Part shown: positions 14,055 through 20,080 of the stretch, in pieces
Layout of the letters: the number at the start of each line of letters is the position of its first letter
Numbering within the stretch: position 1 is the stretch's first letter
The notes under the pieces: model-generated
What the model was told of the DNA's origin: nothing
What the model saw: only the letters and a program-made list of their open reading frames with translations
Database searches by the model: none
DNA from: Candidatus Cloacimonadota bacterium
GTDB taxonomy: Bacteria > Cloacimonadota > Cloacimonadia > G963667145
Direction of reading: 5' to 3'
DNA: 64,000 nt
Assembly: GCA_963667255.1 (NCBI GenBank)
Contig: OY762940.1
Coordinates: 576,001-640,000, forward strand
Made by a program: the position numbers and the translations under genes

Positions 14055-14737
14055 TGAAAAAAAAACTTTATTTCACTATTTGGGCGTTGATTTTTTTGAC
14101 TTCGGGAATTCCGTTTGTTCTCTATCCGTTGCTCTCTCCTATGAGAAAACTCAGAAATGCGGTTATCAGAGCGTTCGCTTTTTTTTATGCTCGCTTGAGC
14201 ATCCTCGCTACAGAGAGCAAATTTCAGATTGTGGGGAGAGAGAATCTGCCCGAGACGAATTTTCTGGCTGTTTGCAATCATCAGAACTTACTCGATATTC
14301 CCGTGATTATTTGTGCTATTCCGCGGACAATTGGGTTTATTGCCAAGAGCGAGTTATACAAAGTGCCTATCTTGGCGATGTGGATGAGGCTGCTGGGATG
14401 TATTGGATTGAAACGGAGTAGTGCCAAGGCTTCCGCCGATGTTTTTCGTAAAGGCGTGAAGAAATTGAAATCCGGTCAAAATCTTATAGTGTTTCCAGAA
14501 GGAACTAGGAGCAGAGATGGCAAAATCAAGAAATTTAAAGCGGGAAGTTTCAAAATGGCTGTGTTAGCGGAAGTTCCGGTAGTGCCGATTACTTGCATAG
14601 GGACAAACAAGCTGTTTTCGCCAAACAATGTGATAAGAGTGATAATCAATCCTCCCGTGAGTTCTGCGGGCAAATCTACCAAAGAGTTGGCGGAAGAGGT
14701 GCAAAAGGTTGTGGAGAAGGGGTTGACGGTTAGTTGA
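14051..14737 (+). CDS. plsC: 1-acyl-sn-glycerol-3-phosphate acyltransferase
   Basis: NHQNLLD (HxxxxD), FIAKSEL, FPEGTRS, VPVVP. Confidence 0.93.
   Translation: MMKKKLYFTIWALIFLTSGIPFVLYPLLSPMRKLRNAVIRAFAFFYARLSILATESKFQIVGRENLPETNFLAVCNHQNLLDIPVIICAIPRTIGFIAKSELYKVPILAMWMRLLGCIGLKRSSAKASADVFRKGVKKLKSGQNLIVFPEGTRSRDGKIKKFKAGSFKMAVLAEVPVVPITCIGTNKLFSPNNVIRVIINPPVSSAGKSTKELAEEVQKVVEKGLTVS
14671..14724 (+). repeat. plsC 3'-end direct repeat, copy 1 (54 bp)
   Basis: CAAATCTACCAAAGAGTTGGCGGAAGAGGTGCAAAAGGTTGTGGAGAAGGGGTT; 52/54 identical to 17095-17148. Confidence 0.95.
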
Positions 14738-14840
14738 AACGATTAACCTTCAATTTATTACTAATTTTATTTAGTTCTGTAAACTTCAACATCAGTAGAT
14801 TACCCAAATTACATATAGCCTTTGTTAGCGTTTCGTGCTT
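14738..14840 (-). mobile_element. attC-like recombination site (partial) downstream of the DUF3883 gene
   Basis: On the minus strand AAGCACGAAACGCTAAC lies just after the stop codon. It is an inverted repeat of 16892-16907 and is followed by an AT-rich stretch ending at the plsC stop. Confidence 0.55.
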
Positions 14841-14842
14841 TT

Positions 14843-15622
14843 TTATTTCGGAGTTACTTGCCAAGTAATAGCGTCAAAGTTGAAATCTGAAAACAATTCA
14901 TTTTGACTTATTATTTTGACATCTCCACGCCTTGTTTCTCTGTTAAAATTGTAAACTCGGTAAATAAAGGCAGAATCTTCGTATTCCTCAAAAAAGTTTT
15001 TTTCATTTTTACTCATATAAAATGGTTGATTGAAATCACCGCTTGTAGTTTTAACTTCAATATAACGAGGAGAACCGTCATCATTTATCGAGGAAATATC
15101 ATAACCTAAGCCATCTCCTTGTAATCGACTCAAATGCTGAACATTTTCCGTTGCTTTCGTTCTGTCTATTGAAAGAGCATCAATTAAGCGGTCAATTTCA
15201 AACTCTTTTATAAATTCTTCACCTTGGTCGCCTATTTCATTATTTCGGTCTCTCACTTTTTCCCAATCAACTTTACGAGCAATAAAGCGTCTTGTTTTTC
15301 CCTTTATTTTTGTTACTTCCACAGGTTGAATAACCGTTTGTGAAATAGGGTTTAGCAGAGAGAATTTGGCAGGGAGTGAACTTTTGTTAACTACAAAACC
15401 TTCATCATATGTCTTTATTGTTTCTCTTTGGTGAGCAACAATATTTCCTATCCGTTGAATGATAAGAACTTCGATTCGTGTTGTCGAGGGTATATTGTCC
15501 TCTTCACTAAATTCTAAAACTGTGTGTAAAAGTTGTTTTACTTCTGATGTGTTTAATTCACCATAAACGGTTAATAATGGTTTAATTGCCCGTCTTATTT
15601 CTGCTTCTGTATGTGCTGCCAT
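14843..15622 (-). CDS. DUF3883 (NOV C-terminal) PD-(D/E)xK nuclease, putative restriction endonuclease
   Basis: IG..GEEF...FE, GDGLGYDI.S, YIEVKTT, F.MS.NE, IYRVY. N-terminal helical (wHTH/Mrr_N-like) region. Confidence 0.85.
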   Translation of the reverse strand: MAAHTEAEIRRAIKPLLTVYGELNTSEVKQLLHTVLEFSEEDNIPSTTRIEVLIIQRIGNIVAHQRETIKTYDEGFVVNKSSLPAKFSLLNPISQTVIQPVEVTKIKGKTRRFIARKVDWEKVRDRNNEIGDQGEEFIKEFEIDRLIDALSIDRTKATENVQHLSRLQGDGLGYDISSINDDGSPRYIEVKTTSGDFNQPFYMSKNEKNFFEEYEDSAFIYRVYNFNRETRRGDVKIISQNELFSDFNFDAITWQVTPK

Positions 15623-15631
15623 TACTCTTTC

Positions 15632-16831
15632 TTAATAGTTCGTTATCATTAAATGTTCTGTCTCTCGGTTATTTCTATTCATAAAACTAACCAAATAGGT
15701 TTTGTCAAACGATTGGATTTTTAATCCTTTGTTATTGTATAATTCAAAAATGAAATCAGTATTTTTAATTATCATCATCCATTTTGCTTTGCATTTATTG
15801 ATAAGATATTTCGCTAATCTTTCTTGGTCTTTTCTTGTAAACTCGTTTTTTGCATAAGTGCTAAACTCACTGTCGTATGGTGGGTCAAGAAAAACAAAGT
15901 CATTCTTCGAAGGATTGTGTTTATAAAAGAAATCTTCAAAATCTATATTCTCAATTATTGTACTGTCAAGTAAAGATTTTAGTTCTTTTGTTTTTAGATA
16001 ATCAACTTTTTTGGAAAAGTTTTTTCGATTATAAGCAATTCCTCCATAAGGGACATTAAAATCACCGTTTGAATTATATCGAAACATTCCACTATAGGCG
16101 AAATTTCTAATAAAAAGAAAGATAGCAGATTTAAAAGCGTTATTAATTCTATATTTTTCTGTGTTATTGTAGATGTGACGAAAATGCATATAGAAAGCAC
16201 TTTTAAGTGCTGTTTCTATATTGTCTAAAATATCGTTATTTGGTAAAACTTGTTTGATTTTTTCAAGTTCCTTCATTCGTTTTATTTTACGAATTAGATT
16301 TATTTTAATTTCTTTAATAAAGTTTTCAATATTGAAGTTGAAGATAGTAGAAAACATTCCATTAAATTCTTCAGCATGAGATAAAATAAATTCAAAAAGG
16401 ATATCTTTTAATTTGGTTTCATCAATCAAGTCATCAGAATACTTTTTGTATGTTATTATAAAAAAATCTGAGTTTCTTTCAATTACGGAGGTCAGTAAAT
16501 TCCAATTATGTATAATCTCATCTACGGCTTTGAAAAAAAGTTGTTTATTACCATTTGTAATACTTTGATACAAATCAATTAACTCATCTGATTTGTCATT
16601 AATGTAGTATTTGTTTGCTTGTAAAGCTGTGTACACAGCTCCACCTCCAACAAATGGCTCAAAATAGTTTTCAAATTTTTCGGGGAGATTAGGAACAATA
16701 TATTTTAATTCTTGTTCTTTTCCTCCAGCCCATTTTATAATTGGGTATAACCGTCTTGCCTTAACATAATTGCCTATACCTAATCCAATTTGGTTATAGG
16801 TTGCAACAGGTTCTTGTACTATATTATTCAT
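15632..16831 (-). CDS. Dam-family (D12 class) N6-adenine DNA methyltransferase with a large internal insertion
   Basis: IKWAGGK, YFEPFVGGGA, IND, GMFRYN..G.FNVPYG, FLDPPY. Confidence 0.93.
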   Translation of the reverse strand: MNNIVQEPVATYNQIGLGIGNYVKARRLYPIIKWAGGKEQELKYIVPNLPEKFENYFEPFVGGGAVYTALQANKYYINDKSDELIDLYQSITNGNKQLFFKAVDEIIHNWNLLTSVIERNSDFFIITYKKYSDDLIDETKLKDILFEFILSHAEEFNGMFSTIFNFNIENFIKEIKINLIRKIKRMKELEKIKQVLPNNDILDNIETALKSAFYMHFRHIYNNTEKYRINNAFKSAIFLFIRNFAYSGMFRYNSNGDFNVPYGGIAYNRKNFSKKVDYLKTKELKSLLDSTIIENIDFEDFFYKHNPSKNDFVFLDPPYDSEFSTYAKNEFTRKDQERLAKYLINKCKAKWMMIIKNTDFIFELYNNKGLKIQSFDKTYLVSFMNRNNRETEHLMITNY

Positions 16832-16891
16832 ATTACAAAGTTAATTTTTTCAAGTAATTAACAATGCTATTGTTGAAAAGTTGTCGGTTCT

Positions 16892-16935
16892 AAGCATGAA
16901 CGCTAACATCTGTATAAACTCAATGGTATTTATCC
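16892..16935 (-). mobile_element. attC-like core site at the 5' boundary of the methylase-nuclease cassette
   Basis: Minus strand reads ...GAGTTTATACAGATGTTAGCGTTCATGCTT; GTTAGCG is complementary to CGCTAAC at the far end of the cassette. Confidence 0.55.
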
Positions 16936-16974
16936 TTTCAAATTGGCATGCTAAGCGCAATTACATTTAGTTTT

Positions 16975-17065
16975 CTTTATATTTATTTCAAAATTTATTT
17001 GAGGCTAAAAATCCAAGAATATATGTCAAGCCAAAAATCTCAAATCCTAGATAAGCTCTCTAAAA
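16975..17065 (-). repeat. Promoter-like direct repeat, copy A (~91 bp)
   Basis: Near-identical to 18977-19068. The minus strand contains TTGACA-16bp-TAGCCT pointing at the methylase cassette. Confidence 0.9.
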
Positions 17066-17094
17066 CTTTTCCCGAAGATAGGGATTTCAGTATA

Positions 17095-17148
17095 CAAATC
17101 AACCCAAGAGTTGGCGGAAGAGGTGCAAAAGGTTGTGGAGAAGGGGTT
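17095..17148 (+). repeat. plsC 3'-end direct repeat, copy 2 (54 bp)
   Basis: CAAATCAACCCAAGAGTTGGCGGAAGAGGTGCAAAAGGTTGTGGAGAAGGGGTT; matches 14671-14724. Confidence 0.95.
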
Positions 17149-17217: not shown

Positions 17218-18696
17218 TTATTCTAAATAGATAATGCGGTCAGCAAGAGCAATAATTTCATCATTCTTTGGAGCAAGTTGTGCATCATTATTTTCTGCGA
17301 TGAAACCAATTATGTTAATATCTTGGTCAATTTGATATTGTTTCAATTCTTTAAATTTAACTGGCTCTTTAAATCCAAAATGTTCTAACTTATTTTCTTT
17401 GATGACACGCCCATCTAAATTCAACATTTCATAAAGCAAAGGAGAAATATAAGGATGTCTAATACAATTTGAAATCAAATTTGCATCAATAGATTCTTTG
17501 TATATGATTTCATCACCTTTTATTTTGTCTCTTATTATTTCAGAATTTTCTTGGTTAATTATTTCTGCAATTGTATGGACATTTTTATTTTCTTGTTCAA
17601 TATTAAAAACTGTTAGTACAGTTCGCATATCAACATTTTTTTGGGGTTCATTTCCTTGATACTCTGCAAATATAACAGCAAGGCTACAGTCACAAATATT
17701 AACTTTTCTCAATGTATCAATACTTGAATAATCGCCATTAAAATAAATAATTCCATTTAAGCTTGGGTTTTCTTTTTCAGTTACTAAAACAATTCTTTTA
17801 GAATAGAGTTTCTTGTTTTTCAATATTTCTTCGATTACTTTTGAAGTGGAGGATGTATATCCGCAAAGAACAATATGGTCTTTAATAGTTAGTTTCCCAA
17901 GTTTTCCTTTTTTAATGTTACTCATAATCTCTCCCGATTTAGTTGATATAGTAGAAATAAAAAAACTAATAAACGAAATATTTGCAATCAAAGTAAATGA
18001 AGAAAAAATTTTGCCCATTACAGTAGTTGGGGCATCATCACATATCCCAACAAGTTTCAATGTATAATTTAAATAGTGAAAGTAAGAATTTGCATTACCT
18101 ACCTGTGATTCTGACAAAAATAGTGCAAATGAATTAATTATTACAATAAATAATGTTCCCAGTAAGAGAATAGCTATCAAAAAGTAGGATTCTTTGAAAC
18201 TCCTTACTAAAATAGAAATATTTGAAAAAGATTTTTTTACTTTTAATAGTCTAATAAATTTTAAAAATTTAATAAACCTTAATAATCTACAGGTTCTAAA
18301 AAATCGAAGAAACCGAATAATTGGAATAAGAGAAACTAAATCGATAATTGGAAAGGGAGATAAAATCCATTTAACTTTATTTGTAATAGCATAGATTATA
18401 GAACCATCTTCGTCTTTTATATCTTCTATGAAATCGGAAGAAATATAAAAGCGAGTTAGATATTCAATAGCAAAGAATACTGTTAAGGAAGTATCTATAT
18501 TGAATAAATAATTCGGTAAGTTTAAATCTGAAAAAAATAATTCAAAAAATGTAGAAATAACAGAAATAAAAATAATAAGGAGCAAAATTAAATCTACATA
18601 TACTCTTTTGGAATTATTTTCACTCTCTAACCACCAGTAAAGAAAGCCCTTTAATCCTTTTTGCTGTTTTTCCGCATATCTATCTAATTTTGACAT
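17218..18696 (-). CDS. 6TM voltage-sensor ion channel with RCK (TrkA-N-like) domain and degenerate pore filter
   Basis: S2 FAIEYLTRF, S3 IIDLVSLIP, S4 RFLRFFRTCRLLRFIK, RCK HIVLCG and D.RTVLTV. Pore reads LVGICDDAPTT instead of TVGYGD. Confidence 0.85.
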   Translation of the reverse strand: MSKLDRYAEKQQKGLKGFLYWWLESENNSKRVYVDLILLLIIFISVISTFFELFFSDLNLPNYLFNIDTSLTVFFAIEYLTRFYISSDFIEDIKDEDGSIIYAITNKVKWILSPFPIIDLVSLIPIIRFLRFFRTCRLLRFIKFLKFIRLLKVKKSFSNISILVRSFKESYFLIAILLLGTLFIVIINSFALFLSESQVGNANSYFHYLNYTLKLVGICDDAPTTVMGKIFSSFTLIANISFISFFISTISTKSGEIMSNIKKGKLGKLTIKDHIVLCGYTSSTSKVIEEILKNKKLYSKRIVLVTEKENPSLNGIIYFNGDYSSIDTLRKVNICDCSLAVIFAEYQGNEPQKNVDMRTVLTVFNIEQENKNVHTIAEIINQENSEIIRDKIKGDEIIYKESIDANLISNCIRHPYISPLLYEMLNLDGRVIKENKLEHFGFKEPVKFKELKQYQIDQDINIIGFIAENNDAQLAPKNDEIIALADRIIYLE

Positions 18697-18705
18697 TTAC
18701 TATTT

Positions 18706-18966
18706 TTAATAAAGTCCAATAATTTTACCAATAATAACGGGAATAGGTTGGTCATTTCGGTCGTAGGTGTTTGAAGAGTTAGCTCCAGATTTTGGTTTTA
18801 CATGTGTTGCAGATACTTCCCAAGAATTTGAAGATGATGCTCCTGAGCGTGGTTTGATTTTCTTGCCGTCAAATTCCCAAGAATTTGATAGCAAGGCACC
18901 GCTTTTTGGTTTTAATTTTTTGCCGTCCCACAGCCAATCGCGTGGTAACTCAATTTTGTTAGCCAT
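18706..18966 (-). CDS. Small protein with three ~19-aa tandem repeats
   Basis: WLWDGKKLKPKSGALLSNS / WEFDGKKIKPRSGASSSNS / WEVSATHVKPKSGANSSNT. AAAGGA RBS; 9 nt upstream of the channel gene. Confidence 0.8.
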   Translation of the reverse strand: MANKIELPRDWLWDGKKLKPKSGALLSNSWEFDGKKIKPRSGASSSNSWEVSATHVKPKSGANSSNTYDRNDQPIPVIIGKIIGLY

Positions 18967-18976
18967 AAAATTTTTC

Positions 18977-19068
18977 CTTTATATTTATTTCAAAATTTAT
19001 TTGAGGCTAAAAATCCAAGAATATATGTCAAGCAATAAGTCCTCAAATCCTAGATAAGCTCTCTAAAA
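18977..19068 (-). repeat. Promoter-like direct repeat, copy B (~92 bp)
   Basis: Near-identical to 16975-17065. TTGACA-16bp-TAGCCT is followed by an RBS and the ATG of the repeat-protein gene. Confidence 0.9.
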
Positions 19069-19078
19069 TTTTTTCTAT

Positions 19079-20052: not shown

Positions 20053-20080
20053 AGTGATAGTATCATATGATACCATCACT
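20053..20080. promoter_or_regulatory. 28-bp palindromic operator upstream of the fic gene
   Basis: AGTGATAGTATCAT|ATGATACCATCACT, 13 of 14 pairs, 11 nt from the fic ATG. Confidence 0.7.

Follow-up and report, generated by a model that had tools for sequence, protein, structure and literature searches.

A Bacterial Lineage of Six-Helix RCK Channels That Has Lost the TVGYG Filter

The window analysed here is a stretch of 64,000 nucleotides from a Candidatus Cloacimonadota bacterium (assembly GCA_963667255.1, contig OY762940.1, positions 576,001 to 640,000), and the elements in question are two neighbouring open reading frames (ORFs) on its minus strand, one encoding a channel protein of 492 residues (17218..18696) and the other a repeat protein of 86 residues (18706..18966). 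The original prediction described them as two genes, 9 nt apart, placed between a restriction-modification-like (RM-like) pair and a Fic gene, and this description holds: both ORFs are confirmed with that spacing, and a Dam-type methylase gene with a NOV_C-domain gene is found on one side and the Fic gene on the other. The small gene and the channel gene lie in a patch of low GC (guanine plus cytosine) content that follows plsC. Their own GC contents are 0.391 and 0.266, respectively, and GC at third codon positions (GC3) differs too.

The channel subunit has six helices (S1-S6), one RCK domain and a C-terminal subdomain. Pfam matches are found to Ion_trans (E 5e-10), Slo-like_RCK (3e-12) and TrkA_N (2e-6), which agrees with the S1-S4 sensor and the RCK domain that had been read from the letters, and there is no Pfam match to Ion_trans_2 in the channel; its closest solved structures are MthK and Slo1. 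The pore helix and remodelled filter, H207-P223, are encoded at 18028..18078 on the minus strand. The segment TLKLVGICDDAP (18028-18063), which aligns with TIATVGYGDYSP of MthK, replaces TxTTVGYGDxxP and stands at the TVGYGD position, so the absence of the K+ filter claimed earlier is confirmed by the MthK alignment. The helix that precedes it is 3 residues shorter than in the canonical kin, the bacterial six-transmembrane (6TM) RCK K+ channels, which we take to be of the E. coli Kch type. An atlas search with the pore part returned nothing more specific than generic channel clusters, all under 0.9.

The first search returned 18 proteins including the query, of which 17 are filter-less and one, P0018 (37% identity), has TVGYG. 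The set was widened by a profile search of 1.8 billion representatives and by scanning genomes, which yielded 19 loci; L022 and three duplicate loci were removed before the alignment, 147 sequences were aligned, and 4 with fewer than 300 filled columns were dropped, leaving 143 for the tree. In this tree 38 filter-less sequences form one branch (FastTree support 1.00), which is sister to P0018 and nested in TVGYG 6TM-RCK K+ channels. The single branch persists when the pore columns are removed (SH-aLRT 98.7 in a quick IQ-TREE run with 26 of the 38 members and 16 of the 23 canonical kin). The TVGYG filter was thus lost once in the clade. None of the 38 members has a TxGYG or TxGFG filter, and the pore helix is 3 residues shorter in every one of them.

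That the copy in the window is a decaying K+ channel could be suspected from its low-GC island and from a filter that looks degenerate. This explanation is hardly credible, since the frame is intact, the loss is common to all 38 relatives and the ratio of nonsynonymous to synonymous polymorphism (pN/pS) of the whole gene is 0.15-0.28; the close relatives have no normal filter either, and the earlier claim that the change is not decay of this copy stands.

Carriers of the clade are found in 1 of 232 genomes of its own phylum, 4 of 401 Flavobacteriaceae, 5 of 301 Treponemataceae and 1 of 68 Deferribacterota, the genomes at the centre of the search being counted. Three further Treponemataceae matches, at E about 1e-45, are TVGYG channels. 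Among viral contigs, 61 pattern matches were obtained and none was confirmed as a relative, and plasmids gave a single distant match (23% identity). The clade is rare, patchy and horizontally spread.

Filter loss recurs among RCK channels. A second, independent branch (support 0.96) holds 27 RCK channels, namely P0075, P0097, P0099, P0100, P0104, P0105 and 21 others, with filters such as LMAGEPIGGEP where TVGYG would stand; in contrast to the variable filter of the 38-member clade, the GEP core of this branch shows good conservation. Six more channels have GEY-type filters.

Within the 38-member clade the filter is variable, with forms such as IGFTD, IELAD and LDFAT, while D220, P223 and T225 are mostly kept. 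Three members keep GFG or GYG despite the pore-helix deletion, and these may be intermediate states; P0017 and P0042 are among those with GFG. In three members (P0011-P0013, L025; one of them from Deferribacterales) the filter glycine is gone (LDFATD, LNFATD, LQFATD) and S4 is 12 residues shorter at its end. In S6 the clade has two fixed residues, N239 (37/38) and S248 (38/38), encoded at 17953..17982 on the minus strand, and glycine is the commonest residue at these positions in the 23 canonical kin. N239 is presumably the glycine-hinge site beside the pore helix, according to KcsA numbering.

Selection was estimated in three groups of 6, 6 and 8 sequences, Treponema plus the window and two Flavobacteriaceae groups, in which rough whole-gene pN/pS values are 0.28, 0.15 and 0.25. 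In the same order the values are 0.39, 0.12 and 0.13 for the pore helix with the filter, and 0.90, 0.35 and 0.46 for the turret. RCK is among the most constrained regions (0.11-0.15). The pore is under purifying selection.

The voltage sensor is conserved across the clade. The S4 helix (residues 128-152; 18241..18315, minus strand) carries Arg or Lys at every third position, and R131, R134, R137 and R140 are Arg or Lys in all members that have a residue there, with only the outermost position, 128, varying. Among the other sensor residues, S45, F75, E78 and R82 are present in 36 of 36 members with a residue at the position, and D119 and P125 in 37 of 37. A neutral residue that breaks the arginine series, as in HCNL1, was looked for at 131, 134, 137 and 140 and was not found. 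The intact sensor with its Arg/Lys-rich S4, a feature of the original prediction, is therefore borne out by the Ion_trans match and by the conservation of F75, E78, R82, D119 and the S4 charges.

The RCK domain and C-terminal subdomain (17221..17883, minus strand) contain seven invariant residues, E345, D356, R358, H374, E378, E396 and K400. The CGYTSS motif at 17848-17865 had been considered a reduced glycine motif; it is an ordinary motif of the MthK type and not unusual, because MthK has CGWSES at the same position. In the fold comparison the channel matches MthK (6u68) with Z 17.1 and a root-mean-square deviation (rmsd) of 6.3 over 276 aligned residues. In single-RCK channels, internal starts supply the soluble RCK copies that complete an octameric ring, as described in PMC3510474, and an internal start is predicted here at Met258, in the context GGAGAG-ATT-ATG (17923..17934, minus strand), which would produce a soluble RCK copy. 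The Met258 codon is ATG in 22 of 22 DNA copies. It is preceded by a GGAG/GGGG-type site in all 7 non-Bacteroidota copies, GGA being also a common glycine codon, and by an A-rich stretch in the 15 Bacteroidota copies. Shine-Dalgarno sites are rarely used in Bacteroidota.

The Ca2+ ligands of MthK are D184, E210 and E212, according to PMC2860591. An intact MthK Ca2+ site was considered for the channel and rejected; D356 aligns with MthK D188 and not with D184. The invariant acidic residues suggest that a divalent cation may be the RCK ligand.

This genome, which is 98.9% complete, has no Ion_trans_2 match, nor do two Treponema carriers, while three other carriers have one. TrkH is present in this genome. 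Silent mixing of the channel subunit with a canonical K+ channel was considered and is rejected for this genome and the two Treponema genomes, where no canonical channel was found.

The best explanation, with a probability of about 0.5 as judged from sequence and its conservation, is that the protein assembles as a homotetramer in which a functional voltage sensor and an RCK ring resembling that of MthK would open a cation pore without K+ selectivity. A channel that is not K+-selective had been proposed already, together with its gating or inhibition by the small protein. The lack of K+ selectivity remains the best reading because the filter loss is conserved in all 38 members and is not decay; gating by a small partner is unsupported. 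In the mechanism proposed, four subunits of 492 residues would assemble as the pore, and the Met258 start would supply four soluble RCK copies, so that the gating ring has eight members as it does in MthK. Depolarisation, acting with a ligand from the cytoplasm, would open S6. With a short pore helix, an asparagine newly acquired in S6 and an outer mouth that is acidic, the filter may be wider and either unselective or permeable to Na+ and Ca2+, so that it would depolarise the cell. The channel would be an accessory stress-response gene, moved horizontally, and K+ uptake in this genome would likely be left to TrkH/KtrB.

Several observations weigh against a conducting, ligand-gated pore of this kind. 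The filter is not conserved within the clade: position 217 is Gly in 18 members, Glu in 13, Asp, Lys and Asn in 2 each and Gln in 1, and position 219 holds ten residue types. In 22 of 38 members the position of the inner filter threonine holds Leu, a residue that might block the pore. The Treponema-plus-window group has weaker constraint on the pore than on the whole gene (pN/pS 0.39 vs 0.28), and the pN/pS values are rough in all groups because synonymous sites are near saturation. One of the three MthK Ca2+ ligands is kept, E210 corresponding to E378 in 38 of 38 members, while D184 is replaced by F343 and E212 by I380. The channel monomer model is of middling quality (pLDDT 72, pTM 0.41) and is weakest at the filter, where residues 217-220 are below 50.

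The main alternative is a pore that does not conduct, so that the protein is a pseudo-channel whose sensor and RCK ring serve as a sensor or scaffold, or carries protons through the voltage sensor as HCNL1 does. It is somewhat unlikely. The absence of the filter, its lack of conservation and the frequent Leu at the inner site would fit it, as would the strong constraint on RCK, and in HCNL1 an absent and variable filter accompanied a dead pore (PMC7306766). Against it, the S4 charges 131-140 are unbroken, unlike the Met gap of HCNL1, fixed polar residues have arisen in S6, and in two of three groups the constraint on the pore equals that on the remaining gene. No partner gene is found clade-wide, and three carrier genomes yielded no canonical channel.

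A pore that still prefers K+ and selects it by a non-canonical route is quite improbable. The clade is nested among TVGYG channels and databases name its members 'voltage-gated potassium channel'; D220 and P223, which belong to the GYGDxxP tail, are kept in 31 of 38 members each, and the three GFG/GYG members point in the same direction. However, both filter threonines and the second glycine are mostly replaced, with Thr at position 215 in 6 of 38 and Gly at position 219 in 6 of 38, the pore helix is shortened in all members, and TVGYG defines the carbonyl cage for K+, according to PMC5052707. The database name is unsupported for the genes of this clade.

Among known channels, MthK (PDB 1lnq, 6u68, 8fz7), a K+ channel that is Ca2+-gated and has one RCK per subunit, is the best sequence match among solved structures (E 3e-8). 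The channel shares with it the pore-RCK layout, the CGW/CGY motif without GxGxxG, E210 and the internal start before RCK, which is here a predicted one. It differs from MthK by the added S1-S4 sensor, the lack of TVGYG, the pore helix shortened relative to the canonical kin and the lack of equivalents of D184 and E212. The canonical bacterial 6TM-RCK K+ channels, represented by the sister P0018, have the same S1-S6-RCK layout over the full length. Slo1/BK also has this architecture (E 7e-7), with tandem RCKs where the channel has a single one; in comparison with Slo1 and the canonical 6TM-RCK channels, the clade has lost the filter and has the fixed Asn and Ser in S6.

Pores without TVGYG can conduct, as exemplified by NaKTs (PMC5052707) and CASTOR (PMC6697748). 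CASTOR, POLLUX and DMI1 (PMC6697748; PDB 7vm8, 6o7a) are RCK-ring channels whose pore has no TVGYG and is not K+-selective, which resembles the reading preferred here for the clade, and CASTOR is described as a Ca2+ channel. The RCK fold of the channel matches 7vm8 with Z 17.5 and rmsd 8.2 over 218 aligned residues. The CASTOR group differs in being plant nuclear channels with a much larger soluble region, and there is no sign that the filter losses share an origin; that of the clade took place within a bacterial TVGYG lineage. NaK and the NaKTs of Tsukamurella (PMC5052707) are bacterial relatives of K+ channels with a rewritten filter and non-selective cation conduction. They differ by having two-helix subunits and a defined filter (LPMGNGPLSP), whereas the filter of the clade is variable. 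HCNL1 (PMC7306766) is voltage-gated and its filter motif is absent and unconserved, as here; it has a proton-carrying Met gap in S4, while in the clade RCK serves as the ligand domain and the core S4 charges run without a break. Among Kv-like channels a loss of TVGYG throughout a clade is rare, in the mostly eukaryotic set described in PMC7576140.

The literature searched, with few subscription papers within reach, describes neither this clade nor a defence channel of the 6TM-RCK type. With a single loss shared by at least 38 bacterial sequences, a closely related sister that retains TVGYG, and possible intermediates, the lineage offers a natural series for the dismantling and replacement of a K+ filter. 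The clade is worth electrophysiological study; the two-gene defence system proposed earlier does not hold.

A role of the channel alone as an anti-phage or cell-death effector that depolarises infected cells concerns function and is compatible with a non-selective pore; it is unlikely. The patchy, mobile spread would agree with it, as would the RM-like pair and the Fic gene in the window and several defence-rich contexts. At L094 these are CBASS, a WYL regulator and an Mrr nuclease, at L093 an Mrr nuclease, and at L096 Kiwa within an integrase island; in Aquimarina (L017, L022) one gene run holds the channel with a caspase and a SpbK-like TIR, and L023 has Thoeris-like TIRs. On the other side, the neighbours of L012 and L013 are housekeeping genes, the channel has no match among PADLOC models, and in a same-genus genome the plsC site is occupied by a canonical TVGYG channel flanked by Shedu and PDC-S01.

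A matched comparison gives this role no support. ORFs of 100-1500 aa within 5 kb were compared with PADLOC models at E<=1e-20 around 14 filter-less loci (the window counted) and 14 canonical-channel loci, the latter from 18 regions of which 4 were dropped for having no TxGYG ORF. A defence match is found at 7 of 14 filter-less and 5 of 14 canonical loci (Fisher p 0.70), in a small sample of related loci and with a cut-off that misses Kiwa and Mrr genes. When generic matches are dropped the counts are 5 and 3 loci (p 0.68), or 4/13 filter-less loci without the window. The enrichment near defence genes expected by the original prediction is not shown in these small, related samples, and neither the channel nor the small gene has a PADLOC family match at E<=0.1.

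A bolder proposal joins structure and role: a new filter architecture, with an acidic mouth and a short pore helix braced by the S6 asparagine, would have turned a K+ channel into a depolarising pore permeable to Na+/Ca2+, and this pore would serve on its own against phage or in cell death, although in Aquimarina the caspase and TIR may take part. This combination is rather improbable. The Aquimarina-type run (L017:2389-11516; also L018, L020, L022, L024, L026 and L029) has the order unannotated 267-aa ORF, caspase, small membrane protein, SpbK-like TIR, DUF6804, 420-aa protein, lipoprotein and filter-less channel, followed by DUF1508, DUF4236 and an Excalibur lipoprotein. In Allomuricauda/Flagellimonas, too, the genes for the 420-aa protein and the lipoprotein stand ahead of the channel. 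A gasdermin-like identity of the ORF before the caspase (L017:2389-3189) was considered and is not claimed, as this ORF has no PDB sequence match at E<=1 and no Pfam or PADLOC match. The Treponemataceae CBASS operon (L094:2993-5546), which contains a patatin, a cyclase split in two ORFs and an E2, is 2.6 kb from the channel.

The 86-residue protein has three repeats of 19 residues, starting at residues 11, 30 and 49, in accordance with the small three-repeat protein described before, and most of its homologues have 100-105 residues and one extra repeat unit. Its model (pLDDT 70) has six strands of at least 3 residues, forming hairpins, and a helix at 75-82. This predicted arrangement resembles beta-flowers (PF21784-21786, clan CL0395), which have repeated short beta-hairpins and a C-terminal hydrophobic helix according to PMC10584680, and atlas neighbours of the protein carry Bflower families at low share. 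Unlike beta-flowers, none of the 11 family members tested matches the PF21784, PF21785 or PF21786 HMM. The fold search gave nothing at Z >=5, with weak Tubby-like matches to 2q4m (Z 3.1, rmsd 3.7, 74 aligned) and 1i7e (Z 2.7, rmsd 4.0, 80 aligned).

That this protein is dedicated to gating or inhibiting the channel, the pair being a defence module, is very improbable. The two genes are on the same strand, 9 nt apart and in one repeat-bounded unit, and a single contig bridges both in three runs of one study; homologues of the small gene are often near defence genes such as Shedu, GmrSD and PD-T4-3. However, the two genes occur together in none of the other loci covered, an outcome that the original prediction had named as refuting it: by tblastn the small gene is found in none of 19 channel loci (two of them cut off upstream), none of 5 further loci and none of 5 whole channel-bearing genomes, and the channel is found in none of 13 metagenomic small-gene loci, of which two share one context and two have little or no downstream DNA. 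The sole weak channel match in the latter falls on an unrelated stretch (34 aa, E 0.098). The small protein has five longer forms, three SH3 fusions and two unannotated, none with a channel domain annotation, and the GC and GC3 of the two genes differ. The channel is independent of the small gene, and the two-gene system with the small protein as gate or inhibitor is unsupported.

The small gene is likely a chance mobile neighbour, unrelated cargo in the same recombination unit. Palindromes resembling attC, identified by eye in four of the 13 small-gene loci, point to the small gene being a putative integron cassette. Two tyrosine recombinases are encoded in the genome, far from the locus.

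The boundaries of the cargo are marked by repeats. An element of 100 nt upstream of the small gene (18973..19073, minus strand) has a second copy, 94% identical, upstream of the methylase pair (16971..17070, minus strand), and a 54-nt copy (96%) of the plsC 3' end (14671-14724) at 17095..17148 on the plus strand forms the right-hand boundary. From these copies, the small gene and the channel are therefore taken as one repeat-bounded cargo unit, which is adjoined by a second unit carrying the methylase pair. The 100-nt element is a likely promoter, with TTGACA (19031-19026), 16 nt, TAGCCT (19009-19004) and a purine-rich ribosome site. The shared promoter of the original prediction is accepted only as an inferred one: a consensus promoter scan does not list TTGACA-16-TAGCCT, and its 33 matches are no excess over the 27.2 +/- 5.6 in shuffles.

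In 4 of 5 same-genus genomes, plsC lies ~0.8 kb from argS and the site is empty, while the fifth has other cargo after plsC, namely Shedu, a canonical TVGYG channel and PDC-S01. At this locus, L044 (G001:C1:900464-903408), the canonical channel has a CxxC tail, and two unrelated channels thus occupy one hotspot. In run X3 the contig depth is 3.8 over the channel unit and 10.1 and 10.8 over the flanks, a weak hint that some cells may be without the unit.

The methylase and NOV_C pair (14790-16915) is flanked by GTTAGCG and CGCTAAC on the minus strand, as integron cassettes are, with attC-like arms that look incomplete. An element of 65-90 nt ending in GTT is present at 16905-16990 and, elsewhere in this genome (G000:C1), near 250034, 306143, 485399 and 1228190, with a weaker copy at 243098. 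The copies are 72-88% identical and each lies beside accessory genes (methylases, nucleases), and the dispersed elements are possible cassette-insertion sites. A near-perfect palindrome of 28 nt (20053-20080) lies directly upstream of the Fic gene and may be an operator. Farther away in this genome, at G000:C1 about 352000-535000, several open frames reach ~11,000 codons.

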